The notes: a model not told the origin generated them from the sequence alone. Numbered from the stretch's first letter, positions 17,094 to 60,955 are shown. The stretch is 64,000 bases of DNA from an uncultured Candidatus Binatia bacterium (GCA_965247985.1 OZ252051.1:3973045-4037044); one strand, 5' to 3'. Program-made: numbers and translations.

Positions 17094-17098
17094 CCACC

Positions 17099-17127: not shown

Positions 17128-17246
17128 CCACTCCAATCGGACACCCTTGGGGATATGGCTCTCACCATATTCTTTACTCGGTCCCATTGAGAGAGGTCGC
17201 TACGGCCCAGGCAAAGCCGATACAGCCATTCTAACCCCCAACCACC

Positions 17247-18497: not shown

Positions 18498-18501
18498 CCA
18501 T

Positions 18502-26280: not shown

Positions 26281-26363
26281 ACACAGCAGAGAGAGGTCAG
26301 CCGATTCCGGCCCCTCAGCGTACGTCAAAAGGAAACAAACATCACAAAAATGGAGGATGGAAT

Positions 26364-27814: not shown

Positions 27815-27855
27815 CCTGCCCAGTCCAGAGTGCATACTGCTACAGAAAGAGTAGA

Positions 27856-38568: not shown

Positions 38569-39336
38569 TTACCGACCAATATACTTGGGCTCGCGTTTCT
38601 CCAGAAACGAATTGACCCCTTCTTCGTAATCATGGGTGGAGCGCAGCCAGGCGTAGGACTTGCGCTCTAACTCCAGGGCCGTCTCCAGCGCGGCATCAGC
38701 GCCTTTATTGAGCACCGTCTTTAAGGTCCGGAGTGCTAGGGGCGCGCGCTCAGCCAACTCAGTCGAAAGTTCGGCTAGGGCGCGCTCAAATTCGTCGCCA
38801 GCAACGCATTGCGTAATCAACCCCCACTGCTCGGCTTGGGGTGCTGTAATGCGGCGACCGGTCATCATAAACAACTTCGCCCGCGTCATACCGATGAGGC
38901 GCAGGGCCCGCTGCGTGCCACCGCTGCCAGGGATCATCCCCAGACGAATTTCAGGAAACGCGAACTGTGAGCGCTCAGTGGCAATACGAAAGTCGCAGGC
39001 CAGCGCGAGTTCAAGACCAGCTCCCATAGTATAGCCATCAATGGCCGCAATCACAGGCTTACGACAGCGCTCCGGCCAGCTCAGCGTGTCGCCCCACTCT
39101 TCCAGGTCGGCCGGCGTTTGGGTCAGGAATTCGGACAGGTCGCCGCCGGCACTAAACGCCTTTCCGCCCGCACCGCGAATAATGACCACTCGCACCGCGT
39201 CGTCCGCATCAAGACTGAGTATGAGGCCGGGCAGCTCTTTGCGCATGGCTACGGTGATGGTGTTCATCAGCGTCTGACGGTCAATCCAGATAGTTGCTTC
39301 AGCACCGTTCTTTTCTATGCGAATGACATCACTCAT
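38569..39336 (-). CDS. Enoyl-CoA hydratase/isomerase (crotonase) family protein
   Basis: Start MSDVIRIEKNG. Motifs VVIIRGAGGKAFSAGGDL, AAIDGYTMGAGLELALACDFRIA and PEIRLGMIPGSGGTQRL. Confidence 0.9.
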   Translation of the reverse strand: MSDVIRIEKNGAEATIWIDRQTLMNTITVAMRKELPGLILSLDADDAVRVVIIRGAGGKAFSAGGDLSEFLTQTPADLEEWGDTLSWPERCRKPVIAAIDGYTMGAGLELALACDFRIATERSQFAFPEIRLGMIPGSGGTQRALRLIGMTRAKLFMMTGRRITAPQAEQWGLITQCVAGDEFERALAELSTELAERAPLALRTLKTVLNKGADAALETALELERKSYAWLRSTHDYEEGVNSFLEKREPKYIGR

Positions 39337-39371
39337 TGTTCTTCTTCCTGTTTTCTTCTTCCAAGCAACAT

Positions 39372-39408
39372 CCCCTCGTCCCTTGGGGGAGAGGGCTAGG
39401 GTGAGGGG
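39372..39408. repeat. GGGAGAGGG-type dispersed repeat, copy 1
   Basis: cccctcgtcccttgggggagagggctagggtgagggg. It is near-identical to 59076-59112, in the same orientation, and lies in the spacer upstream of a minus-strand gene. Confidence 0.65.
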
Positions 39409-39433
39409 AATCAAAATCAGTTTTCATGAGACT

Positions 39434-40999
39434 TCACACCGTCTCATATTCTCCCTCAAGCAGTCTGCGACGCAATAATTTGCCCGTCGGACTCTTGGGT
39501 AAGCCGGGCACAAACTCATAGCGCCGCGGACGTTTGAAGTCGGCAAAGTCCTCGGCCTGACGACAGAAGGCGTCCAGGTCTTCCGCACGCAGCGCAACAA
39601 GACTCCCGTCAGCCCCCCGTTTGGGAATAACAAAGGCAGTGACCACCTGTCCCCAGCGCTGGTCCGGTAGACCGACGACACAAGCTTCATCAACCCCAGG
39701 GTGACGAGAGACAACCTCCTCAACCTCAAGCGGATAAATATTCTCCCCACCGCTAATGACCATATCATCCACCCGACCAACGGTGAAAATATCTCCGTCT
39801 TCGTCCTCGTACACGAGATCGCCGCTAAAATACCAGCCGCCACGCAGCGCTTTGGCATCCGCCTCGGGCCGCCGCCAATAGCCCTGAAACGCTTCGGGCG
39901 AGGAGAGACTGACAATCAGCTCGCCGGTTTCCCCCCGAGACAGAACGGCGTCCGGGTCACCCTGTCTTTCGGAATCAGCCCGCACGATGCGGATCCGGCT
40001 AAAGATACCGGCTCGGCCGGCACAGGTCGGTTTCTCCAATATACGATCACAGATCGTGAATGTATAAATTTCGGTACTCCCGAGATGATTGACAAAAACC
40101 CGAGGCTGGAAAATATCCGCAACCTGTTGCGTGAGTGTCCCGGACATGGGCGCTCCGGCGTAACCCAGCTTGGTGACGCTCGCCATTGCCGTCCGCGTGC
40201 AATCCGGCACATTGACCAGATCGTGATACAGCGTCGGAACGAGATAGAGCGACGTGACCTGCTCGTTCGCAATCAGATTCACGGCTGTCTCCGGGCTCCA
40301 GTCCGGCAGGCAGATCAAGCAACCGTTCAGTAAGGCCATGACAAGCATCGAGCGGACACCCATCGTATGGTAGAGCGGCATGACTCCGAGGGTGCGATCT
40401 CGAATGCTGTTCTGGCTTTGCAGGCTATGGGCGAGGGCCGCACTATACTCGGCCCGATGCGTGCGCGGCACTCCTTTGGGCCGACCGGTTGTGCCGGACG
40501 TATACAGCATAATGCTGCTGTCCGCTTCGGAAACCTCAGCTGGCGATGCCCTGCCGGTCCCTTCGTCCTCTAACAGAGCGGAAAAAGAAAGACAGTCTGC
40601 CGGGGGATTGTCTCCAACGTAGATCCAGGTATGAACGGTTGACAGTGAGGGCCGCGCCGCCTGGACCGCCGCGTGACTTGCCTGTTCAAATATGACCGCA
40701 ACCGCTTCCGCGTCCTGGACACAAAATGCGATATCCCCGGCTGACCAGCGCCAGTTAAGCGGCGTCGCAATGGCGCCGATCCGCTGACACGCCCAGTACG
40801 CGGTGGCATGTTCGAGCCGGTTTTTCAGCAAAAACACAACATGGTCACCGCGGGTAATACCACGCCGGTGTAAGGCCTGCGCCACCCGGCTGATACGAGT
40901 CTGCCAGGCGCGGTAGGTCAGACGCCGGTCTCCATCAATAATAGCCTCTGCCTCGGGATACCGAGCGGCGGCCATATCGATGACGCTGGCGATATTCAT
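39434..40999 (-). CDS. AMP-dependent acyl-CoA synthetase/ligase
   Basis: Start MNIASVID. Its ATG overlaps the upstream TGA (ATGA). Motifs MLYTSGTTGRPKGV, YHTMG, GELIV, SGDL.Y.DEDG and ISGGENIYP.EVE. Confidence 0.9.
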   Translation of the reverse strand: MNIASVIDMAAARYPEAEAIIDGDRRLTYRAWQTRISRVAQALHRRGITRGDHVVFLLKNRLEHATAYWACQRIGAIATPLNWRWSAGDIAFCVQDAEAVAVIFEQASHAAVQAARPSLSTVHTWIYVGDNPPADCLSFSALLEDEGTGRASPAEVSEADSSIMLYTSGTTGRPKGVPRTHRAEYSAALAHSLQSQNSIRDRTLGVMPLYHTMGVRSMLVMALLNGCLICLPDWSPETAVNLIANEQVTSLYLVPTLYHDLVNVPDCTRTAMASVTKLGYAGAPMSGTLTQQVADIFQPRVFVNHLGSTEIYTFTICDRILEKPTCAGRAGIFSRIRIVRADSERQGDPDAVLSRGETGELIVSLSSPEAFQGYWRRPEADAKALRGGWYFSGDLVYEDEDGDIFTVGRVDDMVISGGENIYPLEVEEVVSRHPGVDEACVVGLPDQRWGQVVTAFVIPKRGADGSLVALRAEDLDAFCRQAEDFADFKRPRRYEFVPGLPKSPTGKLLRRRLLEGEYETV

Positions 41000-43437
41000 G
41001 CAGGGCTTCCTTTCATACTCGCCTCCAACTGCTGCCACAGCTTGTTTGGGGTCAGGGGCAACTCGGTAATTTCAATACCAAGATGGCGGACGGCATCGGC
41101 CACCGCATTGGCAATGGCAATCGGCGCAGTCTGGGCGGTGCTTTCCCCGATGCCCTTGGCTCCGGTTAAGGACTGGGGAGTCGGCAGCACAATATGGTCC
41201 ATCACCACGTTGTCCGGCATTTCGTTCAGCGTCGGACACAGATAGTCCATCAACGTTCCGGTCAGAAAATCACCCGTCTCGGTGTAACGCAGCTCCTCGT
41301 ACAGAGCACCGGCAAGGCCGTGTAAGAGACCGCCGGCGAACTGTCCTCGGGCTATCTGTGGGTGCAGGATATTCCCGGCGTCGTGCACAGTAATGTAGTC
41401 GGTCACGCGGATATCGAGCGTCTCTGTATCGATCTCAACAACGGCAACATCCGCAGTGAAAGCATAGACCGCAGAAGAGTTCACCTGATCGTACTCGTTC
41501 GGATAGTCGAGATCACGGGCAATAAACGTTCCTTCAACGTTACAGGCGGTCTCCAACTTCGGCGGCAGCGTTCCGGTTGACCAGTGCAGACGCGCCGCGA
41601 CGTCTTTCAGGCTCAGGCCGAGCTGGGTGTTATCGAGCGCAACAATGCGGCCTTCCCGGACGCTGAGTCGATGCGCTTCAACATCCAGGAAGTAGGCAGC
41701 CGCCTGGATAAGATTGTCTTGCAACTGCTTGGTAGCAGCGACAATTGAACTTGCCCCGACCGCGCCAAAACGACTGGAATAGCTGCCTGAAGAAACCGAC
41801 CACGGTCTGGAGCCGGTATCCATCCCGGCGATGACAGTCACGTCTGCTGGCGCAATGCCCAAGGCTTGGGCGACAATAAAAGCGGCAGTCGTTTCCTGTC
41901 CCTGTCCGTGGGCCGCTGTCTCCAACTCAACCGTGACGCCGCCCGTCGCGTCCAAGTAGATACGTGTCGTCTGAGCCGAGCCGACTCGGACTAGGTTTGG
42001 GCGTCGCTGCGCGGCTTTCTTACTCACGTCTATATAGCCCATATTCGAGCCCGAGGGATCTATTGCAACGGCGATGCCAACCCCGCGCCACACCCTGGCA
42101 TCACTCGGACCTGAAGTACCCCCTGAAGTGCCGGTGGATTGCCGTAGCTTCCAGTAATCACTCAGTTCCAGCGCGCGCTGCGTGGCACGGGGATAATCCC
42201 CGGAGTCGTACAGTCCGCCCGTCACCGTGCGGTAGGGGATATCGTGTGGCTGGATGAGGTTTTGCAACCTGACCTCGGCTGGGTCTTTACCAATCTTCAG
42301 GGCGATTTCGTCAATCGCGCGCTCAATCGGGAAATAGTGCTGTTGGCAGGCATAGCCACGATTCGGGCCGCTGGGACAGACATTCGTCATGACCGCCAGG
42401 GCGTTGACCTGAAGATGCTCGATCTTGTAGGCGTTCATGAAATTGCCGACTGGACGGAACAAACAGCCAGGTTCCGGCGCACGAATATAGGCCCCCACAT
42501 TGTCCATGAGGCGCATTTTGAGACCGAGCAGTTGGCCATCATTGCGTGCCGCGACCTCAAGTTCCGTCACCCGGTCCGTTCCGGTCGAGCTTGCGCTGAG
42601 CGACTCCAGGCGGTCTTCGATCCACTTGACCGGACGGCCGGCTTTCCGAGAAGCAAGCGCCATTAAGGCCATATAGGGATACAGGGCGATCTTATTCCCG
42701 AATGAACCACCGACATCCGGTGGCGTTACTACGCGCAGCTTGCTGAGGGGAACACGGAGCGCCCCAGCCAAAACTGCCAGCATGCTATACGGCCCGTGAA
42801 AGTTGGCCCAAAAACTGACCTGTGACGAGGACGGATTCCAACTGGCGATAATCCCATAGGTTTCGAGTGGAAAGGACTGATAGCGGGGAAAAACATAGCG
42901 CTGCGAGAACACCATATCCGCAGTGCTGAAGACCGCTTCCACATCGCCGTAGGTGAGCTGACGATCGATGGCGACATTGGTTGCAAGCTCCTCATGCAGG
43001 ATGGGGGCCGAGGGCTGCATGGCGGCCTCAACATCAACCACGGCAGGCAGTGGCTCATACTCCACTTCGATTTTATCCCGGGCGTCTTCAGCAATATATC
43101 GGTCGGCGGCAACCACCACCGCGACCGGCTCGCCAACATAGCGTACTTTTTCGATAGCGCAGGAATAGTATCGTCCCGGACGTTCGGCAGCCACCGCAAA
43201 CGGCCGACTCCACCCTTGGATTTCACGCCCGGTCAGCACAGTGATGACGCCCGGAAGCGCCAGCGCAGCGCTGGGATCAATGTCTATAATACGCGCATGC
43301 GCATACGGGCTTCTCACCACCGCGGCATGGGCGAGATTGGGCAGCGGGTTGAGGTCGGCAATATACTGGGCCTGAAGATCAAAGAGCCGCCGGCCTTCGG
43401 TTGAGGGCGGCGGCGCGGTGGTTGGATGCTGAGACAT
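40996..43437 (-). CDS. Molybdopterin-dependent hydroxylase large subunit (xanthine dehydrogenase / aldehyde oxidase family)
   Basis: 813 aa. Contains Ald_Xan_dh_C and C2 regions, and the C-terminal catalytic Glu context GAKGIGESTAQTAPIAIANAV. The active-site loop reads GPNRGYACQQ. It is neither the VAYRCSFR loop (form I CODH) nor AYRGAGR. Confidence 0.9.
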   Translation of the reverse strand: MSQHPTTAPPPSTEGRRLFDLQAQYIADLNPLPNLAHAAVVRSPYAHARIIDIDPSAALALPGVITVLTGREIQGWSRPFAVAAERPGRYYSCAIEKVRYVGEPVAVVVAADRYIAEDARDKIEVEYEPLPAVVDVEAAMQPSAPILHEELATNVAIDRQLTYGDVEAVFSTADMVFSQRYVFPRYQSFPLETYGIIASWNPSSSQVSFWANFHGPYSMLAVLAGALRVPLSKLRVVTPPDVGGSFGNKIALYPYMALMALASRKAGRPVKWIEDRLESLSASSTGTDRVTELEVAARNDGQLLGLKMRLMDNVGAYIRAPEPGCLFRPVGNFMNAYKIEHLQVNALAVMTNVCPSGPNRGYACQQHYFPIERAIDEIALKIGKDPAEVRLQNLIQPHDIPYRTVTGGLYDSGDYPRATQRALELSDYWKLRQSTGTSGGTSGPSDARVWRGVGIAVAIDPSGSNMGYIDVSKKAAQRRPNLVRVGSAQTTRIYLDATGGVTVELETAAHGQGQETTAAFIVAQALGIAPADVTVIAGMDTGSRPWSVSSGSYSSRFGAVGASSIVAATKQLQDNLIQAAAYFLDVEAHRLSVREGRIVALDNTQLGLSLKDVAARLHWSTGTLPPKLETACNVEGTFIARDLDYPNEYDQVNSSAVYAFTADVAVVEIDTETLDIRVTDYITVHDAGNILHPQIARGQFAGGLLHGLAGALYEELRYTETGDFLTGTLMDYLCPTLNEMPDNVVMDHIVLPTPQSLTGAKGIGESTAQTAPIAIANAVADAVRHLGIEITELPLTPNKLWQQLEASMKGSPA

Positions 43438-43485
43438 AATGCTAAGAAAGACGCTGTTGGACTATCACGCAGGGGTTGAATCCGT

Positions 43486-43968
43486 TCACTTTCTTTGATC
43501 CCGCAAGCGCTTGGCTGCCTCCACAATACTCACATAGCCGGTGCAGCGACATATATGCCCCCCCAGCGTCTCTTGAATATCCCGGTCCGTAATCGGCTCT
43601 GGCGCGGTCTCCAGGAGATGACACAGACTAAGGGCGAAACCGGCAGTGCAAAAGCCGCACTGCATAGCAAAGTGCTCAACAAAAGCCTGCCCGACCGTTT
43701 TTCCGAGGTCGGTTTGCATGATCCCTTCAAGCGTGGTGATCGCATGTCCTGCCGCTTGCGGGGCCAAACGCAAACATGAACGAACGGGCAATCCATCAAC
43801 CAGCACCGTACAGGCACCGCACACCCCCTGCTCACACCCCAGATGTACGCTGGTGCAGCCGGCCTCTTCGCGCAGAAAGTCGGCCAGCGTTTTGCGAACG
43901 TCAACCAGCGTTTCAACTGGCGTTCCGTTGACGGCGGTCGTGACAATGATGCGGCGTTGAGGCTGCAC
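43486..43968 (-). CDS. (2Fe-2S)-binding small subunit
   Basis: GTG start 5 nt after AGGAGA, overlapping the upstream TAG by 1 nt. Motifs CEQGVCGACTV and CGFCTAG...NICRCTGY-type (HICRCTGY). Confidence 0.9.
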   Translation of the reverse strand: MQPQRRIIVTTAVNGTPVETLVDVRKTLADFLREEAGCTSVHLGCEQGVCGACTVLVDGLPVRSCLRLAPQAAGHAITTLEGIMQTDLGKTVGQAFVEHFAMQCGFCTAGFALSLCHLLETAPEPITDRDIQETLGGHICRCTGYVSIVEAAKRLRDQRK

Positions 43969-44864
43969 TATGCTCTCCTGACCGTGTTCTCTCGGCCTTC
44001 CTTCCCTTTCCACATAGCAACAGCATCCAGGTAGGCGCGCTTGACCATCACCCGAGCGAGATGCTTCCGATACTCGGCAGAGGCATGCAGATCAGTGTGA
44101 CAATCGAGTCCTGCGACAGCCGACGCCGCAACCGCCTCGGCCTGACCGTCAGACAATACCTGCTGTGTCAGCACGGCTTCAGCCTGGGGGACCCGCAGAG
44201 GGCGATCCTCCACGCCAAACAGGACGACACGTCCATGCGCACAACGGTCCTCACCCATCTCGGCCAGCACGATCGCCCCGGCCAGGGCAAAATCCCCCGC
44301 CCGTCGGGTGTACTCCCGCACCCCCCACACCACGTTCTTGCGGATGGGGATACGGACTTCGGTCAGCAGTTCGTCAGGCCGGATATCCGCGCTCAGGGGA
44401 CCCTGAAAAAAATCAACCGCCTGAATACAGCGTGCTCCGGACGGTCCGACAACGAGCAGCTCTGCGTTTAAGGCGCAAATTGCCGCCGGCAGTTCCGCGG
44501 CCGGGTCGGCATGGGCCAGACTCCCCCCAATTGTTCCCGCATACCGAATAGGCGGATGGCCGATCAGGCGCGTGACCGCAGCCAACACGGGCACGGTGCG
44601 CTGAATACGAGCGTCCCGTTCAAGCCTGTATTGCCGGGTGAGAGCGCCAATATGCAGGCGCTCAGCCTCTTGACGGATGTAGCTCAACTCGTCCAAGCCG
44701 TTGATGTCCACAACCACGCCGGGAGTTGTCAGTCGCATATTGAGGAGCGGCATAAGACTCTGGCCCCCAGCGAGAATCTTCGCCTCGTCGCCATACTGAC
44801 CAAGGACGGCCAGCGTCTGTTCGATTGATTTCGGAGCAATATACTCAAAGGGGGCAGGCTTCAT
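43968..44864 (-). CDS. FAD-binding subunit (CoxM/XdhB-like)
   Basis: Start MKPAPFEYIAPKS after GAGGGAGAA. Motifs ILAGGQSLMPLLNMR and AGTIGGSLAHADPAAE. There is no Cys-rich 4Fe-4S insertion. Confidence 0.9.
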   Translation of the reverse strand: MKPAPFEYIAPKSIEQTLAVLGQYGDEAKILAGGQSLMPLLNMRLTTPGVVVDINGLDELSYIRQEAERLHIGALTRQYRLERDARIQRTVPVLAAVTRLIGHPPIRYAGTIGGSLAHADPAAELPAAICALNAELLVVGPSGARCIQAVDFFQGPLSADIRPDELLTEVRIPIRKNVVWGVREYTRRAGDFALAGAIVLAEMGEDRCAHGRVVLFGVEDRPLRVPQAEAVLTQQVLSDGQAEAVAASAVAGLDCHTDLHASAEYRKHLARVMVKRAYLDAVAMWKGKEGRENTVRRA

Positions 44865-45021
44865 TTCTCCCTCTTCGACCTCGCGCCGGACTATACTATG
44901 GATGGAATAGCCAGTCCAGTTTTCCAGCCCCCTGCGTTTCTCCAGTTGACGCACCCCCGGACAATCCATATTGATGGGCCGAAGAGTCTAGGATCACTTT
45001 TTTTCCGAAAGGAGTATGTGT

Positions 45022-47627: not shown

Positions 47628-49313
47628 TCACGCCTCCACGTTCGAGCGCAGCACGCGGCCAGACAACGGGCCGGTCTGCTCTCCATCTGAGAACAGGAAT
47701 TGTCCGTTCAGGAGCGTATGCGCGATACCCGTCGATTTTTCGATGTAGCGCAGTCCTCCACCGGGGAAATCATGCACCGGCTCCTGTTTTCCGCAGTCGA
47801 CCGTCTCAGGATCAAATACCACCAGATCGGCGATCATACCCGCAGCGACTGTCCCGCGCAGTGGTACGCCAAAGACCTGAGCGGGGACGGACGTCAACTT
47901 CCGGATGGCCTCTTCGAGCGGTAACATCTGTTTGTCGCGCACCAGCGTTCCGAGCAGATAGGTCGAGTAGCCCGCCTCGCAGCGCATATCGGCATGTGCC
48001 CCGCCATCCGACAAACCGACCAGGGTATGCGGATGCGTGAGCATGTCTTTATTGACCTCGCCAAACTCGTACAAGAACTGCATGTCCAGATCGTCGTTGA
48101 GGGCTAGATCAAAAAACAGATCGAGCGGGTCTTTCCCCCGCTCGTGGCTCAGGCTGGCCAGGCTCTTGTCCAGCAGGGGTTGCAACTCCGGCTTGTTGAC
48201 CGTGAACACGCTCAACTGCTCCCACTGTCCGGTGAAAATACGCGGCTGTTTCAGCTCTTCACGAAACGCGGCCCGAAAGACAGGGTCGGCACACATGCGT
48301 TGCTGCTCGTCCAGAGGCCGGTCGAAGATCGGCTTCCAGCAATCAAAATTCCCAAAGATAAACGGGCGTTTCAGATTAAACCGAGCGCTCTTGTAATGAC
48401 ACGGTACTTGCCCCAGCGGCAGATAGCCCCGGTCAAAGAGCGGCACCACCCGATTGACCGCAGCCTGCCAGGCATCGGGTGGCGCCTCCGGCTTTTGCAG
48501 CAGCCCCAGCCACGTTACCGGCCGTTCACTCTGGAGTAGCAAAAAGGTCAGCAGGTCATATTCGTCATCAGACAAAAACCCCGGACTCCGCGTGAGCGCA
48601 ATCTCGATACTCCCCCGGCCGCGTTCTTTGAGCACGCCGGACAAAGCCCCCAGTTCGTCCCGGCTGGCCATCCGGCACGGCAGCGGTCGGCCCCGAAAGC
48701 CTAAGTGCTGGGGTAAGACGGTCGTCGAGAAACCAAACGCGCCAGCGTCCATAGCAGTGCGGAAGAGCCCCGTGAGTTGCCGGATCTCGTCTTCCGTTGC
48801 CGCTCGCTCCTTACTCTCCTCTCCGAGCACGTATTGGCGCAGCGGCGAGAGCGGCAGCATCATTCCTACATTCATTCCCAGCCCGTTATTGCCGAGCGCG
48901 TTGAGGTATTCGTCAAAGCCCTGCCAGGACCACCCGACTCCTTTTTGGAGGACCTCCAGGGACATGCCCTCGACATTGACCAGGTCGCCAACCAGGGCCT
49001 CCCGGTCGGCGGGTTTGCACGGCGCCAGGCCAACCCCGCAGTTCCCCATGATAATGGAAGTCACACCGTGCCAGGATGAACACGTTGCCAGCGGGTCCCA
49101 GAGAATTTGGGCGTCGTAATGGGTGTGATGGTCAATAAATCCTGGGCACACGATCAGCCCACCAATGTCGAGGACGGTGGCCGCCTGGCGGGACGGAATA
49201 GTGGGTTCAACCGCAACGATCCGATCTCCGCTCAGCGCTACGTCCGCGGCAAACCGCTCCCGGCCGGTTCCATCAATAACCGTCCCCCCTTTGAGCACTA
49301 TGTCGTAGGACAT
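47628..49313 (-). CDS. N-acyl-D-amino-acid deacylase (D-aminoacylase) family amidohydrolase
   Basis: MSYDIVLKGGTVIDGTG...GDRIVAV...PGFIDHHTHYD...GVTS...GLSDGGAH. Confidence 0.85.
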   Translation of the reverse strand: MSYDIVLKGGTVIDGTGRERFAADVALSGDRIVAVEPTIPSRQAATVLDIGGLIVCPGFIDHHTHYDAQILWDPLATCSSWHGVTSIIMGNCGVGLAPCKPADREALVGDLVNVEGMSLEVLQKGVGWSWQGFDEYLNALGNNGLGMNVGMMLPLSPLRQYVLGEESKERAATEDEIRQLTGLFRTAMDAGAFGFSTTVLPQHLGFRGRPLPCRMASRDELGALSGVLKERGRGSIEIALTRSPGFLSDDEYDLLTFLLLQSERPVTWLGLLQKPEAPPDAWQAAVNRVVPLFDRGYLPLGQVPCHYKSARFNLKRPFIFGNFDCWKPIFDRPLDEQQRMCADPVFRAAFREELKQPRIFTGQWEQLSVFTVNKPELQPLLDKSLASLSHERGKDPLDLFFDLALNDDLDMQFLYEFGEVNKDMLTHPHTLVGLSDGGAHADMRCEAGYSTYLLGTLVRDKQMLPLEEAIRKLTSVPAQVFGVPLRGTVAAGMIADLVVFDPETVDCGKQEPVHDFPGGGLRYIEKSTGIAHTLLNGQFLFSDGEQTGPLSGRVLRSNVEA

Positions 49314-49328: not shown

Positions 49329-49796
49329 TTACGGGCGAGACGGCTTGTCTGTTTGCGGCCTCTTCTTAATCAGATAGGCGTGCATACCCTCAAGCACGAC
49401 CTCGTCGCGTTGATTGATAATACGGGTTGTGAGGCGCAGGACGCCGACAGCGGTCTTGGGAATCAGTTCGCTCACTTCCAGCTCGGGTTTCACGGTGTCG
49501 CCGATCAGGACCGGTTTGAGAAACCGGGAAGACTGCTCAAGAAAGGCCACCATCGACTCTTCGACCAACGGCGACAGTTCGGACGCACCCAGACAGCCCA
49601 GGGCGGTCACCAACAGCCCGTGGGTGACACGTTTGCCAAAGCGAGTGGTCTTGGCGTATTCGTCATCGTAGTGAATCGAGTGGTTGTCGCCCGTCATGCC
49701 GGAGAAAAAAAGAAAATGGGCATCGGTCAGGGTTTTGGCCGGACTCCGATAGACCTCACCAAGCTCGAAATCTTCAAAGTATTTGGTAGTTGGCAT
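49329..49796 (-). CDS. MaoC-like (R)-specific enoyl-CoA hydratase / hotdog-fold dehydratase
   Basis: FSGMTGDNHSIHYDDEYAKTTRFGKRVTHGLL. Its start abuts the RidA stop (49796/49797). Confidence 0.85.
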   Translation of the reverse strand: MPTTKYFEDFELGEVYRSPAKTLTDAHFLFFSGMTGDNHSIHYDDEYAKTTRFGKRVTHGLLVTALGCLGASELSPLVEESMVAFLEQSSRFLKPVLIGDTVKPELEVSELIPKTAVGVLRLTTRIINQRDEVVLEGMHAYLIKKRPQTDKPSRP

Positions 49797-50189
49797 CTAT
49801 TTCTCATCCAGCACGGCAATCGCATCAATTTCTATGAGCGCTTCCGGACGCAGCAGTTCCTTGACCACAATCCCGGTTGCCGCGGGGAAACCGTTTTTGA
49901 AAAACTCGCGGCGGACCTCGGCTGTGCCGCGATAGCCTTCCTTGGTGGTGATATAGTCCACGGTCTTGACGATATCGTCAAAGCTCGCTCCGGCTGCGTC
50001 CAGGATCTTGCCGATCTTCTGAAAGATCTCGCGCGTTTGGACAACAATATTACCCTCGCCCACGACTTCGCCTTTTGCGTTGAACGCGGTTAGGCCGGAA
50101 ATAAACAACAGATTCCCCTTGCGCACCGCCGGCGAGAACGTATAGCGCTGGTCAAAGCCCCAGGGATCAACGATTTCAAGTTTCGGCAT
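49797..50189 (-). CDS. RidA/YjgF/L-PSP family protein
   Basis: Start MPKLEIV 9 nt after GAGGAGA. Motifs LLFISGLTA, QTREIFQKIGKILDAAGASFDDIVK and IEIDAIAV. Confidence 0.85.
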   Translation of the reverse strand: MPKLEIVDPWGFDQRYTFSPAVRKGNLLFISGLTAFNAKGEVVGEGNIVVQTREIFQKIGKILDAAGASFDDIVKTVDYITTKEGYRGTAEVRREFFKNGFPAATGIVVKELLRPEALIEIDAIAVLDEK

Positions 50190-51939: not shown

Positions 51940-52275
51940 TCACGCCGCCAGCATTTTCTCGTTGCAGGTATAGATCGTGACATCGGGAATGCGGGCGAAA
52001 TCCGTATCTGTGGTCGCAATGATGGAGACCTCATGGTCCTGCATAATAGACCAATGATAGGCGTCCCGAGGCAGTAAGAGGTGACGGTCCACTGTTTTGA
52101 GGGCCGTCTCATATGAACCTGCTTCTGTTTCGATAAAGGAGATATGCGGTAACTGCTCAAGCCTTTTTGTAAACGCTCGCAACTTCCGCAATATTGGTTT
52201 GAAACGGTCAGGCTCTTCTCGATACACTTCCCAAAAAGTTTTCGGAGCATGAAGCTGTTCGGTTTCGAGCTTCAA
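51940..52275 (-). CDS. PIN-domain-like protein (possible VapC toxin, atypical N-terminus)
   Basis: C-terminal pattern RDAYHWSIMQDHEVSIIATTDTDFARIPDV resembles PIN. The usual N-terminal D(T/S)N motif is absent. TTG start overlaps the upstream stop. Confidence 0.45.
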   Translation of the reverse strand: MKLETEQLHAPKTFWEVYREEPDRFKPILRKLRAFTKRLEQLPHISFIETEAGSYETALKTVDRHLLLPRDAYHWSIMQDHEVSIIATTDTDFARIPDVTIYTCNEKMLAA

Positions 52276-52394
52276 TAAGATGTACCACGTTCTCGTACAA
52301 AGCGGTCCAACAGGAAAAGCAGAGTCTGCTGGTTCTCCTGGGCGAGTCGCTTCAGTGTGCGATGGAGCGCGTCGTCAACGTAGACAGATTTCAT
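52272..52394 (-). CDS. 40-aa ribbon-helix-helix-like antitoxin candidate (not in ORF track)
   Basis: MKSVYVDDALHRTLKRLAQENQQTLLFLLDRFVRERGTSY. Its TGA overlaps the TTG of the PIN-like gene. Confidence 0.4.
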   Translation of the reverse strand: MKSVYVDDALHRTLKRLAQENQQTLLFLLDRFVRERGTSY

Positions 52395-52415
52395 GTCATT
52401 TTCTCTTCGCAGCAT

Positions 52416-52439
52416 TATTTTAGCTATTCAGCTAAAATA
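52416..52439. promoter_or_regulatory. Perfect 10-bp inverted repeat (operator candidate) upstream of the antitoxin
   Basis: tattttagct-attc-agctaaaata, 22 nt upstream of the ATG at 52394. Confidence 0.45.
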
Positions 52440-52734
52440 AACAGGAATGCACGGAAAAGAGGCTTTACTCATGTCGATGCTCTTATTGGCAGGGGTATAT
52501 ATCTCTGCGTTGCCGCATACTCGCAAATCCGCAGGGGCTCCCGTGTGGTACACAATCGACACAAATTCGCGATCAAGGTGGCGAGGGTGTATGAGGTATA
52601 GCGAGGGGTATCATAAGTTCCTGGAAAAATTGACCTTTTCCGCTTGCCCGTATGATATGGAAACACGTTACAGCCAAAACTGGATAAGAAGAGAGAATCT
52701 TTCCTTTGTCAAGTGGTGCCATATGTGTTACTAA

Positions 52735-53001
52735 TTGCCCGTGGCCGAAGTCCGAGAATATCTTACCGACCGAGGGCAGAGCCCGTATGCAAATTGGTTT
52801 TATCGACTCAATGCCCCAGCGGCGGCCAAGGTCGCAGTAGCCTTGACTCGTATAGAACAGAGCAATTTCTCGAATGTCAAAGGGGTTGGTGGGGGCATCT
52901 TTGAATACAAGATTGACTTTGGACCTGGCTACCGAGTGTATTTCGGTAAGGACGGAGAGACGCTGGTTATTCTGCTCGGTGGAGGAACGAAGAAACAATA
53001 A
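52735..53001 (+). CDS. Addiction-module killer protein (RelE/ParE superfamily, HigB-like), truncated by an in-frame TAA
   Basis: EYKIDFGPGYRVYFGKDGETLVILLGGGTKKQ, then TAA (52999-53001). The same frame continues as QKDIVTAKSLWQDYKRRKRLES to a TAG at 53068-53070, 2 nt before the antidote ATG. Confidence 0.7.
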   Translation: MPVAEVREYLTDRGQSPYANWFYRLNAPAAAKVAVALTRIEQSNFSNVKGVGGGIFEYKIDFGPGYRVYFGKDGETLVILLGGGTKKQ

Positions 53002-53072
53002 CAAAAGGACATCGTGACAGCAAAATCCCTTTGGCAAGACTACAAACGAAGAAAAAGGCTGGAGAGCTAGCT

Positions 53073-53390
53073 ATGCCGTTAACACGGAGCTTTAAGGAAA
53101 CTATTCAGGCACGAGTGCACAGTGATCCCGCCTTCCGGGACGCGCTTTTGAGGGAAGGGGTGGAGTCCTTACTCGCAGGAGATGTCGAGACGGGGAAGGC
53201 GGTACTTCGTGACTATATCAATGCGACAATTGGCTTTGAGGCGTTAGGTACACTCGCGAATAAGCCTGCAAAGAGCCTCATGCGCATGTTTGGGCCGCGC
53301 GGCAATCCACAAGCAAAGAATCTCTTTGAAGTGATTGGGCATTTGCAGAAACAAGAAGGAATTCAACTGGAAGTGCACGCCGTGCGCTAG
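53073..53390 (+). CDS. Addiction-module antidote protein (HigA family HTH)
   Basis: MPLTRSFKETIQARVHSDPAFRDALLREGVESLL.GD...GKAVLRDYINATIGFEAL.....K.AKSLMRMF...GNP. Confidence 0.8.
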   Translation: MPLTRSFKETIQARVHSDPAFRDALLREGVESLLAGDVETGKAVLRDYINATIGFEALGTLANKPAKSLMRMFGPRGNPQAKNLFEVIGHLQKQEGIQLEVHAVR

Positions 53391-53470
53391 AGCGTCTATA
53401 CCCAACGGCAAAAATTGAATCGGCCTTTCACAAGGCCATCAAGGGAATCCGCAGAATCTGGCCCAGGTCG

Positions 53471-56359: not shown

Positions 56360-57244
56360 ATGAAATATGGCATTCAACTTGGTGGTGGGGCGTCCGTGTC
56401 TCAGCGCGACTCGCTCAAAAAAGTCGCCACTGCCGCAGAAGCACTTGGCTTTGATTCGCTCCTGATTGGCGATCATATTGTCATTCCCAAGCAGATTACC
56501 GCCCCCTGGCCCTATGACGAATATGTGGGCGGCAAGACGCCGTATGCGGTGTACACCGAAATGGTCTGGCTGGACCCGTTCGACACCATGGCCTTTCTGG
56601 CGGCGATTACTGAGCGGATACGCCTGGGCATCAGCGTCGTAATTGTGCCGTATCGGCATCCCTTTGACGTTGCGCGCCGGGTAGCCACCATTGATGTGCT
56701 GTCCGGCGGACGTTTTGTCATGGGCATTGGAGTCGGCTGGCTGGAGGACGAATTTCGTCTGCTGAATATCCCCTTCAAAGAACGGGGTGCTCGCACGCGC
56801 GAATATATTGCTATGATGCAAGCCTTGTGGACGCAGGACTCGCCCCGTTTTTCCGGCAAATTCGTCGAGCTGAAGGAAGATGTCAACGTCCTGCCCCGTC
56901 CGCTCCAAAAGCCCCATCCGCCCATTTGGGTGGGGGGAGAATCCAAGCCGGCCTTGAGACGCGTAGCCGCCTTTGGCAATGGCTGGCACTGTGGCCTGGT
57001 CCTGCCCGAGCGGATTCCTGGCTTACTGGATCAAATCAAAGGACTCATGGACGAAGCCGGCCGCGATTTTAACGAGTTGGAGATTACCGCTCTTGCCCTA
57101 TCCAATAGGACTGGCGACAAAGAACTTGAGGAGTATCGGGCCGCCGGCGTTGATGTGCTGTATATGCTGCCGTTGAGCAACGAGACCGATGCCGTCATTG
57201 AGGAAATGCACGACTTTGCGGAGCGAGTCAGTAGGTCGGATTAG
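56360..57244 (+). CDS. LLM-class (luciferase-like) F420/flavin-dependent oxidoreductase
   Basis: Start MKYGIQLGG after AAAGGAGGA. Motifs GFDSLLIGDH, RLGISVVIVPYRHP, LSGGRFVMGIGVGW, PRP.QKPHPPIWVGG. The last 4 codons and the stop lie in a REP copy. Confidence 0.85.
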   Translation: MKYGIQLGGGASVSQRDSLKKVATAAEALGFDSLLIGDHIVIPKQITAPWPYDEYVGGKTPYAVYTEMVWLDPFDTMAFLAAITERIRLGISVVIVPYRHPFDVARRVATIDVLSGGRFVMGIGVGWLEDEFRLLNIPFKERGARTREYIAMMQALWTQDSPRFSGKFVELKEDVNVLPRPLQKPHPPIWVGGESKPALRRVAAFGNGWHCGLVLPERIPGLLDQIKGLMDEAGRDFNELEITALALSNRTGDKELEEYRAAGVDVLYMLPLSNETDAVIEEMHDFAERVSRSD

Positions 57245-57303
57245 CGCAGCGTAATCCGACACGTCCGGGCTGTCGGGTTACGCCTACGGCTAACCCGACC
57301 TAC
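57231..57303. repeat. Pair of inverted REP-like hairpin elements (GTAGGTCGGRTTAGC...GTAAYCCGACA)
   Basis: Copy 1: gtaggtcggattagcgcagcgtaatccgacac (57231-57262). Copy 2, on the opposite strand: gtaggtcgggttagccgtaggcgtaacccgaca (57303-57271). Each has a 9-bp stem. Confidence 0.7.
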
Positions 57304-57937
57304 AAGGCTTCGGTGGCTGCTGAGCCCGCGTCACGCCGATCATACTGTCTCGCGTGACCAACTCGGCGAGATCATCCTCGCCCATCCCCTCCGTGCCGGT
57401 TGGCCGCTGTGGAATCACCAGATAGCGCATATCTGCCGTACTGTCGTACACCCGGACCTCCATATCAGGCGCTAATTCCAAGCCAAATTCTTTGAGGACG
57501 GCACGCGGCTCTTTCACCACCCGGGCTCGGTAGTTCAGACTTTTATACCAGTCGGGCGGGAGACCGAGGAGCGCGCGCGGATAGCAGGAACACAAGGTAC
57601 ATACCACAACGTTGTGGATGGTAGGCGTGTTCTCCACAGCCACAAGCGTACTCCAGGTGTCCACGTCAATGTCGAGTGTGGCAATGGCCGCCTTGGCGTC
57701 TGCAAGTAAGTGTTGCTTAAAGTGCGGATCGACCCAGGCGCGCGCAATCACCCGCGCCCCGACTGCCGGAGTGCGGGCATCCATATCTTCGACCGCGCGC
57801 CGAACGTCGTCTGCGCTCAGCAATCCCTTTTCGATCAGCAGGACCTGAATGGCTTCTACCCGCTGCTCGTAATAGGTCAGCTCGGAAGCCTCTTCAAGAG
57901 GAACGTGCGGGTCGGGCTCATCGTGTTCGTGCATCAC
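57290..57937 (-). CDS. nthA: Nitrile hydratase alpha subunit, cobalt type (metal claw VCTLCSCYP)
   Basis: VVCTLCSCYPRALLGLPPDWYKSLNYRARVV.EPR.VL.EFG......EVRVYDSTADMRYLVIPQRP. AAGGAG lies upstream of GTG/ATG (57937/57934). Confidence 0.9.
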   Translation of the reverse strand: MMHEHDEPDPHVPLEEASELTYYEQRVEAIQVLLIEKGLLSADDVRRAVEDMDARTPAVGARVIARAWVDPHFKQHLLADAKAAIATLDIDVDTWSTLVAVENTPTIHNVVVCTLCSCYPRALLGLPPDWYKSLNYRARVVKEPRAVLKEFGLELAPDMEVRVYDSTADMRYLVIPQRPTGTEGMGEDDLAELVTRDSMIGVTRAQQPPKPCRSG

Positions 57938-57948
57938 TTACTCCTTAC

Positions 57949-58251
57949 TTACTCCTGGGGGCAGGGCTCCAGCCAGTGTTCATACATATCAATCAATAAC
58001 TGATCATTCTGATACTGAGAGGCAGATTCATATTGTTCCCAGATATGGGTTTGATCAAAGCGGACTAAATAGAGCGCTTGCTTGGGGCGTCCGTCTTTAC
58101 CATACGCCAGCGTCTCGGGGTTGCGGAACGTACCATGGACAGTCTCTATGATCCCTACTTTGCCTTGAATATAGGCTGGCGTCCGGCAATGACCGGACGG
58201 GCTAGCGACTCGGATGCGAACGCGGTCTCCGGGCTTGTACTGCGGCATCAC
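57949..58251 (-). CDS. Stand-alone C-terminal half of nitrile hydratase beta subunit (SCNase-alpha / ToyL-like)
   Basis: 100 aa. YKPGDRVRIRVASPSGHCRTPAYIQGKVGIIETVHGTFRNPETLAYG......LYLVRFD....W......LLIDMYEHWLEP. Starts 10 nt after the SDR stop. Confidence 0.85.
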   Translation of the reverse strand: MMPQYKPGDRVRIRVASPSGHCRTPAYIQGKVGIIETVHGTFRNPETLAYGKDGRPKQALYLVRFDQTHIWEQYESASQYQNDQLLIDMYEHWLEPCPQE

Positions 58252-58260
58252 CGTTCGTCC

Positions 58261-59046
58261 CTAGTAGGCCGACAACCCGCCATCAACCGGCACGATTGCG
58301 CCGGTCATCATGCGGGCTTCATCCGAGGCCAGAAAGAGGGCCACCCGGGCGATATCTTCAGGCTCGCCCACAGAGAACGGATATTTCTTCAGTTGGGATT
58401 CCAGGTTCACGACAGCGGACTGGCCGGCCGACTGCGGACTATCGACGCTCAGGCGTTGCCGCACCCGGTCGGTCATAATAACGCCCGGACAAATCGCATT
58501 GGCTCGAATCTTATCCTTGGCATACGTCCCAGCTAACACCTGGGTAAAAGAAATGACGCCACCCTTGGCCGCGGTGTAGACGTGCAGCGGAAACGATCCC
58601 CGCAAAGCGACGACGGAGGACATATTGACAATCGCGCCACCACCAGCCTTGATGAGTTCAGGAATTCCGTGCCGGCAGCACAGAAACGGGCCCAGCAAAT
58701 CGAGCGACTGGGTATGCTGCCAGACTGACATATCAACCTCAGTCACTGTCTTATCTTCGGCAATGGACCCGCCGGCGCAGTTGTACAAAATATCAAGCCT
58801 GGCGTAGCGTGCCACCGTTTGGTGGATAGCGTTCTGCACGCTCTCTTCTTGGGTGACATCGGTTTCTATAAAAACAGCCTCTCCACCAGCGTCATGGACC
58901 AGGCGTTCAGTCTCGCGTCCAAGCTCAGGCCTGAGTTCGGCAATGGCGACCTTCGCCCCCTCTTGGGTAAAAATCCGGGCGGCAGAGCGAGCAATACCTG
59001 AACCAGCCCCGGTAATGAATGCGACTTTGCCATCGAGGCGTCCCAT
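58261..59046 (-). CDS. Classical short-chain dehydrogenase/reductase (SDR)
   Basis: GKVAFITGAGSGIA (TGxxxGxG), NCAG and the S...YTAAK catalytic triad. Strong SD: CAAGGAGGAATAT-ATG. Confidence 0.9.
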   Translation of the reverse strand: MGRLDGKVAFITGAGSGIARSAARIFTQEGAKVAIAELRPELGRETERLVHDAGGEAVFIETDVTQEESVQNAIHQTVARYARLDILYNCAGGSIAEDKTVTEVDMSVWQHTQSLDLLGPFLCCRHGIPELIKAGGGAIVNMSSVVALRGSFPLHVYTAAKGGVISFTQVLAGTYAKDKIRANAICPGVIMTDRVRQRLSVDSPQSAGQSAVVNLESQLKKYPFSVGEPEDIARVALFLASDEARMMTGAIVPVDGGLSAY

Positions 59047-59075
59047 ATATTCCTCCTTGTTTTTCCCCTTCCTAC

Positions 59076-59112
59076 TCCCTCGCCCCTTGGGGGAGAGGGT
59101 CGGGGTGCGGGG
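59076..59112. repeat. GGGAGAGGG-type dispersed repeat, copy 2
   Basis: ctccctcgccccttgggggagagggtcggggtgcgggg. It abuts the stop (59116-59118) of the beta N-half gene and fills most of the spacer to the SDR gene. Confidence 0.65.
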
Positions 59113-59115
59113 TGT

Positions 59116-59475
59116 CTACGCAACAGAAGCGTCCGGGCCACCCACCGAACTTCCCTCAGTCGTTTCGACCCTCCGCTGCGCCACAATCTCTTCGGCCTTA
59201 TGGTCAATCTCGACTTTGGTCAGGACGTTCTTTTCAATCAGGAGGGTTTCAATTGCACTTATCCAGCGTTCGTAATAACTCATTGTTTCATATGCCTCGG
59301 ACGGCAGACTTTCGATTGCCCGACGCAATTCATCCACCCGGATCACGCGCTGGTCGGCGCTACTCAGCAGCACCAGTAAGGCATCCGTCCGTTTCTCCCA
59401 AAACGACAGTTCATGTTCTGCCCGGTTGACAGGCTCGGCATCAGGCCAGCCCCCACGGTCATGTACGCCCGGCAT
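59116..59475 (-). CDS. Stand-alone N-terminal half of nitrile hydratase beta subunit (SCNase-beta / ToyK-like)
   Basis: 119 aa. MPGVHDRGGW...E..FWEKRTDAL........IRVDELRRAIESLP..AYE.MSYYERWISAIETLLIEK.VLT. Strong SD: GAAGGAGGG. Confidence 0.85.
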   Translation of the reverse strand: MPGVHDRGGWPDAEPVNRAEHELSFWEKRTDALLVLLSSADQRVIRVDELRRAIESLPSEAYETMSYYERWISAIETLLIEKNVLTKVEIDHKAEEIVAQRRVETTEGSSVGGPDASVA

Positions 59476-59526
59476 ACGACCCTCCTTCTTTTTGAACGGG
59501 TCTTTTTACCCTTTTTCTTGATGGAT

Positions 59527-59710
59527 TTAGTATAAATCGATACAGGCAATATCAAGGGCGCGCAAACTCGCTTCTGCTGCTCGTAGGACAGCGGCGTATT
59601 GCAGATGGCTGCCAGAAACTTTCGAGGCAATCAGAACCTGATCAGATATCTTTGATCGCCGCTCCAACCACATCTTCCACGCCGGTATTGCCGAGCTGTT
59701 TATACTCCAT
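59527..59710 (-). pseudogene. Eroded aldo/keto reductase remnant
   Basis: MEYKQLGNTGVE (AKR N-terminus), fused to EDVVGAAIKDI, then TGA. After a frameshift the sequence reads DQVLIASKVSGSH...AAEASLRALDIACIDLY, then TAA. About 60 of about 330 codons remain. Confidence 0.55.
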
Positions 59711-59752: not shown

Positions 59753-60835
59753 TCACTTTCTTTTCCTACCACGAGGCTTCCGTTGCCCCACTGCATGCAG
59801 CCGGCGTGGATTATCGACCATCATCAGATTGACGTCCGCCTCTGAAGCGCCTAACGATTTGAGCCAGGGAATAATATTGTCATACACGTGCGAGTAGCCC
59901 CAGCCGCCGTAGTTCTTATAGCACGTCTTCATGGCGACCTCGGCACACAACAGCACCCGGTCAGCATAGCCAGCATCCAAAAGATCTCGCACGACACGGA
60001 CTTCTTCCTTATCTGTCGAAAACCCAAACCCAGGGCCACCCGCACTTTCAAACAACTCCTCGTGACCAAAATGGTCGTAAGAGACAAAGCCGACCCCTTT
60101 GTTCAGGATACGTTTGGGTACGTCAGCGTTGGGAAAGAGGCCCAGGTGGGACATATAACATTTACCCAGATCGGCGCCTTCTTTTTCCAAAATATCAATA
60201 TAGGTATCCCAGTGGTCTGCCGGAAAATTCGGATGAACCGTCAGCGACACTCCGGTAGCTTTCTGGGCGCGGGCTGACGCCCGCAAGACCTTCTCTTCTC
60301 CCGGTTGAAACGGCTCATGGGGTTGACCGCTCATCGCGATTTCGCCAATGTTGCCAGCTTTAATCCCCGTGCTGCCGATCCCTTGCGTGATCTCTTTGAT
60401 CATAATGTCGGAGAGTTCTTCAACATTCTTGTCGGCGATTTCAGGCGGATGAGAAAACTGTACATACCACCCTGTTGAAGCCACAATATGCAGGCCGGTG
60501 GCACGCGCAATTTTCTGTAACGCAATGGGGTCACGTCCCATGCCGGGCAGATCAACATTGATCAATGTTTGCCCGCCGGCGAACTTGTACTCAGCAGATT
60601 CCTGAATCGCCAGGTCCAAGTCATCCTGCACGAGGTTGTCTTTAAAGAGCATGGCGTTACGACGCACTTGGCCAAGATTTTGCATCGTAATCTTGCTCTC
60701 GCTGAGCCCCTTGAGCACCCCAGAATCTGGCGGCTGGTGCCAACACAGAATATCAATGGTCAGATGTACGTGGGACATGGTGCCCCCAATCTGACTGTCA
60801 TCAATTTCCCCTAACACGGTATTGAGTGTAGCCAT
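59753..60835 (-). CDS. Phosphotriesterase-family (PTE/PHP, PLL-like) amidohydrolase-fold protein
   Basis: Start MATLNTVLGEI after AAGGAGGG. Motifs TMSHVHL (HxH metal site), GIKAGNIGEI, VSLTVH and SHLGLF...YDHFG. Confidence 0.85.
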   Translation of the reverse strand: MATLNTVLGEIDDSQIGGTMSHVHLTIDILCWHQPPDSGVLKGLSESKITMQNLGQVRRNAMLFKDNLVQDDLDLAIQESAEYKFAGGQTLINVDLPGMGRDPIALQKIARATGLHIVASTGWYVQFSHPPEIADKNVEELSDIMIKEITQGIGSTGIKAGNIGEIAMSGQPHEPFQPGEEKVLRASARAQKATGVSLTVHPNFPADHWDTYIDILEKEGADLGKCYMSHLGLFPNADVPKRILNKGVGFVSYDHFGHEELFESAGGPGFGFSTDKEEVRVVRDLLDAGYADRVLLCAEVAMKTCYKNYGGWGYSHVYDNIIPWLKSLGASEADVNLMMVDNPRRLHAVGQRKPRGRKRK

Positions 60836-60955
60836 ACCGGCCCTCCTTTCTTTCTCGACAAACTTGTATAACGCCAAGCCTAGCATAGCTACGAATCACG
60901 AGAGAAGAGAAATTTATATTTGTCTGGATAGAACGGCTCGGCTATAGTCGGCCCC

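Follow-up and report, generated by a model that had tools for sequence, protein, structure and literature searches.

A 64,000-nt stretch of DNA from an uncultured Candidatus Binatia bacterium (GCA_965247985.1 OZ252051.1:3973045-4037044; hereafter the window, along which all open reading frame (ORF) coordinates are counted) carries four tightly spaced ORFs on its minus strand within 57290-59475. They encode the N-terminal half of a nitrile hydratase (NHase) beta subunit (betaN), a classical short-chain dehydrogenase/reductase (SDR), the C-terminal half of the beta subunit (betaC) and a cobalt (Co)-type NHase alpha subunit. We conclude that these genes probably form an operon for an activator-independent three-subunit Co-type NHase of the AnhD/AnhE/AnhA kind, which has recruited a pathway SDR. 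Published work already accounts for the split of beta, the gene order and the missing activator; what is new is confined to the SDR gene, retained between the two beta-half genes in one Binatia lineage.

To assign the alpha subunit, we compared its ORF with family models and solved structures. It scored 266.6 bits against TIGR01323, the NHase alpha equivalog model (cut-off 249.85), and 205.8 bits against TIGR03887, the thiocyanate hydrolase (SCNase) gamma model, which is below the cut-off of 291.45. Its best PDB match was the Bacillus smithii Co-NHase (1v29_A, 234 bits), with an end-to-end alignment. The metal claw VCTLCSCYP (within VVCTLCSCYP) was present in the ORF, and CTLCSCYP was found in all 81 alpha sequences of the family. 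In the claw C-T-L-C-S-C of V-C-T-L-C-S-C-Y, Thr and Tyr mark the Co type, and Ser and Thr mark the Fe type. An earlier note on this DNA had taken the 215-aa ORF for a genuine Co-type NHase alpha; the claw and the TIGR01323 score both agree with that assignment.

The same note had described beta as encoded by two separate genes, each with its own start, and this is what Pfam indicated, with the 119-aa ORF matching PF21006 and the 100-aa ORF matching PF02211. When aligned with the 219-aa beta subunit of the Pseudomonas putida Co-NHase (3qxe_B), betaN covered residues 1-91 and betaC residues 131-218, indicating that beta is split in the inter-domain linker. The N-terminal helical domain and the C-terminal SH3-like beta domain are both present, on separate ORFs. 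On TIGR03888, of which betaN covered positions 1-101 of 226, the halves scored 57.3 and 71.9 bits, both below the 152.2-bit threshold for a single beta subunit (~210-230 aa).

Two beta arginines of NHases, betaArg52 and betaArg157 in Pseudonocardia thermophila numbering, form hydrogen bonds with the oxidised Cys ligands. Both were found here, one on each half: R51 of betaN, in DELRRAIE, aligned with DEFRHSIE of solved Co-NHases, and R23 of betaC, in GHCRTPAY, aligned with GHTRMPRY. R51, Y67, Y68 and W71 of betaN were invariant in 85 family members, and H21, R23, P25 and Y27 of betaC were invariant in 83 sequences. The invariant H21 is the counterpart of AnhE-His21 in the Streptomyces enzyme ScNHase, which has been reported as a substrate-binding residue (PMC13243292). 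Conserved residues and the characterised ScNHase let us predict the following mechanism, as a whole, with good confidence. The alpha subunit would carry a Co centre in the claw CTLCSCYP, its Co specificity being read from that motif; betaN and betaC would jointly stand in for an ordinary beta subunit, each giving one of the arginines that hold the oxidised Cys ligands; and the predicted reaction is R-CN + H2O -> R-CONH2.

We then consider how such an enzyme could mature. A tblastn search of the window with the canonical NHase accessory protein gave no match except betaN itself, and the nitrile_acc model matched betaN alone in the window, weakly, at 18.8 bits. Within these 64 kb, the statement of the earlier note that no activator or self-subunit-swapping chaperone gene is visible is correct. 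Searches with HoxN, CbtA and CbtB (tblastn) found no cobalt transporter in the window either. The genome of Streptomyces canus likewise contains no activator gene; AnhD doubles as a self-subunit-swapping and metal chaperone, and the ScNHase holoenzyme, AnhD2E2A2, is active without an SDR (PMC7329996). By analogy with AnhD, betaN may double as a self-subunit-swapping and metal chaperone, and this predicted role would account for the lack of an activator gene here.

To determine how widespread the split is, we scanned species-representative genomes and confirmed 166 loci, of which 80 were fetched and 78 were complete. Gap classes derived from tblastn coordinates were wrong for L016, L019 and L024, where matches read through stops, and ORF coordinates were used instead. 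All 78 complete loci had a separate betaN ORF and the order betaN, betaC, alpha; in 53 of them, the halves abutted or overlapped by a few bases, with no SDR. With betaN as query, more than 1,100 protein clusters were found, the best 120 of which were all 96-112 aa long and contained the N-terminal domain only; the homologues were 65-94% identical and shared a common end point. The nearest loci belonged to Candidatus Binatia, and others to Rokubacteria/Methylomirabilota, Nitrospinota, Dehalococcoidia, Stellaceae and other Alphaproteobacteria, Entotheonella and Eremiobacterota. The layout betaN-betaC-alpha is general in the family and probably also ancestral. The earlier note knew a split beta only from SCNase and the toyocamycin NHase ToyJKL, which proved too narrow: ScNHase (anhD-anhE-anhA) has been characterised, and RefSeq holds further cases in Streptomyces, Planktothrix and Agrobacterium. 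Nor do adjacent halves elsewhere mark this locus as an exception, since alpha lies between the halves in Agrobacterium pAt and other genes occupy the slot in other loci. Relatives with an intact single beta gene and an SDR insertion confined to this genome were not what the scan gave: the split was found in 78 of 78 loci, and the SDR recurred in 22.

Some records of these loci deserve a remark. One genome (L027, 5222-6849 and 10001-11281) contains a canonical NHase cluster (219-aa beta, alpha and a 101-aa accessory protein) about 3 kb from its split NHase, indicating that the canonical and split types coexist. In cultured bacteria, PGAP names the split halves 'SH3-like domain-containing protein' or plain 'nitrile hydratase'. 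The records of several metagenome-assembled genomes (L019, L026-L029, L037 and L079) are titled 'uncultured Enterobacteriaceae' or 'Klebsiella pneumoniae' despite a Binatia-like locus, which looks like mislabelled taxonomy.

The earlier note had reported a complete classical SDR gene between the beta halves, and we confirmed it by the motifs TGAGSGIA, NCAG, NMSS and YTAAK and by end-to-end matches to adh_short and adh_short_C2. The scan gave betaN-SDR-betaC-alpha in 22 Binatia species loci (L005-L026), which share the order OmpA, MBL (opposite strand), an optional phosphotriesterase-family hydrolase (PTE), betaN, SDR, betaC, alpha, LLM (opposite strand), DUF6962, MscS and cupin. These 22 loci were monophyletic on a neighbour-joining tree of alpha, a quick distance tree with a single outgroup and without support values, and their sister was L032, in which the order is betaN-SDR-epoxide hydrolase-betaC-alpha. 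Another Binatia locus, L039, has the layout betaN-epoxide hydrolase-DUF29-betaC-alpha-SDR; neither of these two layouts has parted the SDR orthologue from the NHase genes. In an alphaproteobacterial locus (L051), a 620-aa ORF without a Pfam match occupies the slot between betaN and betaC.

The SDR was the most conserved operon protein within the clade (Table 1). At dS 0.2-2, all four genes had dN/dS values of 0.06-0.28, the SDR having the lowest (0.06-0.13), and GC content was even across the whole locus, without anomaly. The occurrence in 22 species loci, the low dN/dS and the uniform GC indicate that the SDR insertion is old, fixed and under purifying selection; these dN/dS and dS values and the 22 species-level genomes refute the suggestion of a recent mosaic in the earlier note. 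The SDR gene would have come to lie between the beta cistrons in a common ancestor of the Binatia clade that carries it, probably together with an epoxide hydrolase as one module, and would then have been kept in the slot under purifying selection, presumably co-transcribed with the NHase genes. A literature search for an SDR or epoxide hydrolase within NHase operons found nothing relevant. We also observed a degraded relative, L079 (8631-9220), in which betaN is truncated near residue 70 and directly adjoins C-terminal fragments of alpha, most of alpha having been lost by deletion together with the SDR and betaC; the flanking MBL, LLM, DUF6962 and MscS genes persist.

What the SDR does was judged from its linkage and its relatives. 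A shared operon in bacteria usually means a shared pathway, and the SDR is most likely a co-expressed pathway enzyme and probably not a subunit or maturation factor. It would carry out an oxidation or reduction at a hydroxyl or carbonyl group of the oxygenated nitrile on which the NHase acts, or of the corresponding amide. Several findings weigh against this picture of the locus. For Co specificity and for the chaperone role of betaN, we extrapolate from a Streptomyces enzyme whose homologue in strain NBC_01176 is only 39-56% identical to the window proteins. No specific function emerged for the SDR: NCBIfam and PDB searches gave only sub-threshold generic matches, and its best solved relatives were uncharacterised SDRs (~157 bits). 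Its nearest metagenome relatives, 66-75% identical, lay on contigs without NHase genes, with alpha/beta hydrolases, a transposase, amidohydrolase_2 genes and a TetR regulator as neighbours, and the NHase-linked copies of L032 and L039 fell in the same identity range. In L016 (=L001), the SDR (10349-10951) has unusual substitutions and an in-frame loss of ~65 N-terminal residues including the TGxxxGxG motif, and betaN, betaC and alpha are intact. L039 fell outside the SDR clade on the alpha tree, so the history proposed for the SDR/epoxide-hydrolase module is tentative. An NHase-exclusive orthologue group for the SDR was considered and ruled out by the metagenome relatives that lack NHase genes.

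These relatives and the decayed L016 copy are what one would expect if the SDR were a passenger, a useful gene in the operon whose substrate is unrelated to that of the NHase, with the betaN/betaC junction as a merely permissive site; the unrelated genes that fill the same slot, DUF29 in L039 and the 620-aa ORF in L051, point the same way. We consider such a passenger unlikely. The SDR has been kept at one position in 22 species-representative genomes with the lowest dN/dS of the operon, its orthologues still stand beside NHase genes after rearrangement in L032 and L039, and membership of a bacterial operon usually reflects a common pathway.

A closer tie, with the SDR as a physical subunit of the split NHase or as its dedicated redox partner, serving substrate channelling or the maturation of the Co(III)/Cys-SO2H/SOH centre, is very unlikely. 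The position of its gene between two structural genes, 9 nt from the betaC start, and its very high conservation would fit such a role, and cobalt insertion into ScNHase in vitro needs reducing conditions (PMC7329996). Against it, the 53 complete loci with adjoining halves have no SDR, ScNHase is active as AnhD2E2A2 without one, the NHase of L016 is intact beside an SDR without its cofactor-binding motif, and close SDR homologues exist without NHase genes. Classical SDRs, moreover, catalyse hydride transfer to organic carbonyls, and are not known to act as metallocentre maturases. The dedicated redox partner proposed in the earlier note is therefore unproven, given the NHase-free relatives and the L016 copy. 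Its reading of a three-subunit NHase otherwise stands in respect of the three-polypeptide locus, both arginines, the absence of an activator from the window and the complete SDR, and falls in respect of the mosaic.

That the enzyme might not be an NHase in function, but an SCNase-like or toyocamycin-type enzyme whose substrate is a nucleoside or not a nitrile, is extremely unlikely. It has three polypeptides in the same gene order as scnB-scnA-scnC, and a cyanate operon lies elsewhere in the window, as the earlier note had said. The alpha subunit, however, passes the NHase model and fails the SCNase gamma model, and SCNase chains were the weakest PDB matches for all three pieces, so the affinity to SCNase suggested in that note is not supported. 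The cyanase is 30 kb away, in a separate nitrogen-assimilation cluster. ToyJKL is alpha-first and belongs to a gene cluster for 7-deazapurine biosynthesis; the Pfam-annotated ORFs of the window include no QueC/QueD/QueE or GTP-cyclohydrolase-type domains. Finally, a recent mosaic or decaying relic, with the SDR insertion having broken the beta gene into pseudogene fragments, can practically be dismissed: the aldo/keto reductase (AKR) remnant and REP-like insertions do show remodelling of the locus, and L079 is truly degraded, with a truncated betaN fused next to an alpha fragment, but the split is older than the insertion and universal among the complete loci examined, both halves have a start and a stop of their own and show purifying selection, the arrangement is common to 22 species-representative genomes and base composition shows no anomaly.

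We next describe the translation signals and spacers. The strong Shine-Dalgarno sequence noted before, GAAGGAGGG, is placed 5 nt ahead of the betaN ATG; AAGGAGGA is found before the SDR start and AAGGAG before the alpha start, and the SDR stop is 9 nt from the betaC start. The betaN-SDR spacer contains a hairpin, CCCTCTCCCC-CAA-GGGGCGAGGG, with an RNA fold of -26.1 kcal/mol and no T-run after the stem. The same spacer is only ~24 nt long in most relatives, so its REP-like element is a lineage-specific insertion. A ~38-nt GC-rich REP-like palindrome (CCCTCGYCCCTTGGGGGAGAGGG...GGGTGMGGGG) occurs in two intergenic copies, at 59053-59100 and ~39360-39410. The spacer had been thought to be filled with a dispersed GGGAGAGGG repeat, and this was right only in that its spacer copy sits in the two-copy palindrome: there is one exact GGGAGAGGG in the spacer and three in the window, compared with 0.81 expected, and 7 of 100 shuffles reached three. 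It was ruled out as a significant dispersed repeat, with no enrichment over shuffles.

At the other end of the operon, a nested 67-nt hairpin (fold -45.6 kcal/mol) supplies the last alpha codons and overlaps the stop; the gene beyond it is the convergent LLM gene, and the hairpin is likely a transcript end or stabiliser. Consensus scans for intrinsic terminators and promoters inside the operon gave fewer matches than shuffled sequence and none in the intercistronic spacers, and an Rfam search of the whole window gave no family, riboswitches included, at the gathering score. From the tight gaps (9 nt and ~24 nt) without a terminator-like T-run site, we infer a single transcript for the four genes.

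Table 1. Coordinates of the NHase operon and of other features of the window, with conservation of the operon proteins.
Feature	Position	Strand	Size and match	Remarks	Identity to window protein across the SDR clade
betaN (NHase beta N-terminal half, AnhD-like)	59116-59475	-	119 aa; PF21006 NHase_beta_N, E 6.5e-19, profile positions 1-102/115		80-95%
betaN-SDR spacer	59047-59115	-		REP-like GC-rich hairpin and SDR ribosome-binding site	
SDR, classical	58261-59046	-	261 aa; adh_short_C2, E 2e-57		87-95% in 21 of 22 Binatia loci; 79% in the decayed L016 copy
betaC (C-terminal SH3-like half of NHase beta, AnhE-like)	57949-58251	-	100 aa; PF02211 NHase_beta_C, E 3.4e-22		67-85%
alpha, Co-type NHase (AnhA-like)	57290-57937	-	215 aa; PF02979 NHase_alpha, E 1.3e-82		72-91%
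Nested REP-like palindrome	57231-57303	-	inverted repeats of 15, 13, 9 and 9 nt	over last alpha codons and stop	
AKR remnant	59521-59649	-	tblastn	between PTE gene and betaN	
PTE	59753-60886	-	PF02126, E 1e-61	upstream; optional cluster member	
RidA	49800-50189	-		~7 kb downstream of alpha	
MaoC-like hydratase	49332-49796	-			
Amidohydro_3 protein	47631-49313	-	561 aa		
Cyanate operon	24913-28668			NMT1-type binding protein, cyanase (26364-26807), permease, ATPase	
Nitrogen-assimilation cluster	9540-19896			GlnE adenylyltransferase, porin, PII, Amt ammonium transporter, GAF histidine kinase, sigma-54 response regulator	

Upstream of betaN on the same strand, the earlier note had seen a PTE-family hydrolase and an AKR relic, and both were confirmed, by PF02126 and tblastn, respectively. 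The relic matches residues 60-102 of the AKR that stands intact upstream of betaN in L004 (81% identity, E 3.6e-16) and then runs into a stop; intact copies also occur in L019, L026, L032, L002, L034 and L036. Of the 22 related Binatia loci, only four (L006, L017, L019 and L026) carried PTE, and there it was 94-99% identical to the window copy, compared with 80-95% for betaN and 55-70% for OmpA. This patchy presence and an identity far above that of the flanking genes suggest a recent horizontal spread or sweep of PTE among Binatia.

The SDR-less loci L002, L034 and L036 share an MBL-fold hydrolase (opposite strand), an LLM oxidoreductase, a HAD gene in some cases, AKR, betaN-betaC-alpha, RidA, a MaoC-like hydratase and Amidohydro_3, a layout that is probably ancestral. 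The RidA-MaoC-Amidohydro_3 trio directly follows alpha in these three loci, and probably also in L029 and L033. In the window, this layout is partly dispersed, with AKR left only as a relic and the trio ~7 kb downstream on the same strand. RidA, MaoC and Amidohydro_3 may belong to the same pathway as the NHase. The neighbourhood suggests a catabolic island in which the amidohydrolase, a candidate amidase, could take the amide to acid and ammonia. No aldoxime dehydratase or amidase-signature enzyme was found among the annotated ORFs of the window. The nitrogen-assimilation cluster and the cyanase/ABC operon lie 30-45 kb from the NHase locus.

Two other regions of the window were noted. A low-GC island at 52000-53400 (0.47 compared with ~0.57) breaks the synteny that is otherwise conserved from the cupin gene to the genes downstream; it contains two small plus-strand ORFs, 52735-53001 and 53031-53390, without a Pfam match, the first of which we take to resemble a RelE/ParE-type 'addiction module killer' toxin. 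At 38569-44969, on the minus strand, a molybdopterin dehydrogenase set (FAD-binding, 2Fe-2S and 813-aa MoCo subunits) stands beside an AMP-binding CoA ligase and an enoyl-CoA hydratase, probably as a separate catabolic cluster.

The locus illustrates a split architecture that is common in uncultured phyla and strongly conserved, and in Binatia this split NHase is tied to an SDR, and sometimes an epoxide hydrolase, within a conserved hydrolase/oxidoreductase island. One possible, though doubtful, interpretation is that the SDR, ancestrally SDR plus epoxide hydrolase, between the beta cistrons marks a dedicated Binatia pathway for oxygenated nitriles, such as epoxy- or hydroxy-nitriles. If so, the SDR and the split NHase would act one after the other on one substrate, and the betaN/betaC junction, left by an ancient gene fission, would be a recurrent insertion slot that forces co-expression of accessory enzymes with NHase subunits. 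The occupants of this slot seen so far are SDR, SDR plus epoxide hydrolase, epoxide hydrolase plus DUF29, the 620-aa ORF and, in Agrobacterium, alpha itself. On this view, the conserved neighbourhood (MBL, LLM, HAD, AKR, RidA, MaoC and Amidohydro_3) would form a nitrile-to-acid catabolic island not described before and widespread among uncultured phyla of soil and sea. Three-subunit, activator-free NHases are attractive as biocatalysts because they mature without a chaperone gene, and only ScNHase and the toyocamycin enzyme have been characterised so far. The present loci supply concrete candidates in which to look for substrates, and they allow a natural test of whether a place between subunit genes in an operon has functional meaning. 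How broadly the split family is distributed, and the linkage with SDR and epoxide hydrolase in Binatia, are useful rather than surprising, and nothing is overturned by them.

Among known systems, the closest in design is ScNHase of Streptomyces canus CGMCC 13662, a three-subunit Co-type enzyme encoded by anhD-anhE-anhA, in which AnhD corresponds to the N-terminal and AnhE to the C-terminal part of beta (Guo et al. 2019/2020, PMC7329996; PMC13243292); it has been studied on neonicotinoids. The Binatia locus resembles it in the separate betaN and betaC, the order betaN-betaC-alpha and the Co-type alpha, and no activator was found in the 64-kb window. We made this comparison by proxy, through a homologue of the same architecture on a plasmid of Streptomyces sp. 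NBC_01176, which is 39% (betaN), 41% (betaC) and 56% (alpha) identical to the window proteins. Unlike in Binatia, the Streptomyces halves are adjacent and the cluster, betaN-betaC-alpha-aquaporin...HoxN cobalt transporter, has no SDR; the aquaporin and HoxN are not in the Binatia window. A RefSeq plasmid of Planktothrix agardhii also carries betaN-betaC-alpha.

The canonical Co-NHases of Bacillus smithii (1v29), Pseudonocardia thermophila (1ire) and Pseudomonas putida (3qxe) have the same claw, VCTLCSCYP, and the beta Arg, Tyr and Trp residues are conserved. In contrast to them, Binatia beta consists of two polypeptides without the ~30-40-residue linker, and the operon includes an SDR and, within the window, no P14K/NhlE-type activator. 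SCNase of Thiobacillus thioparus (ScnB-ScnA-ScnC, 2dd4) has three polypeptides that correspond to betaN, betaC and alpha in the same order, but it is the most distant solved relative of both Binatia halves. The small ORFs are nearer to Co-NHase beta (E 5e-10 for betaN and 9e-16 for betaC) than to ScnB and ScnA (2dd4_B and 2dd4_A, E ~1e-4), and the SCNase beta match starts at residue 48, after an N-terminal extension that is absent from Binatia betaN.

The three-subunit toyocamycin NHase of Streptomyces rimosus, ToyJKL (cited in PMC7329996), is like the Binatia locus in that two small subunits derive from beta and no activator is required. Split NHases also occur in cultured bacteria (L085, L086 and L087); on Agrobacterium/Rhizobium plasmids (Agrobacterium tumefaciens pAt NZ_CP048575.1, L087, 3963-5300), the order is betaC-alpha-betaN-aquaporin-CbtA/CbtB cobalt uptake. 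The halves are non-adjacent there, as in the Binatia locus; in Agrobacterium, it is the Co-type alpha itself, 56% identical to the window alpha, that separates them, whereas in Binatia an accessory enzyme does so.

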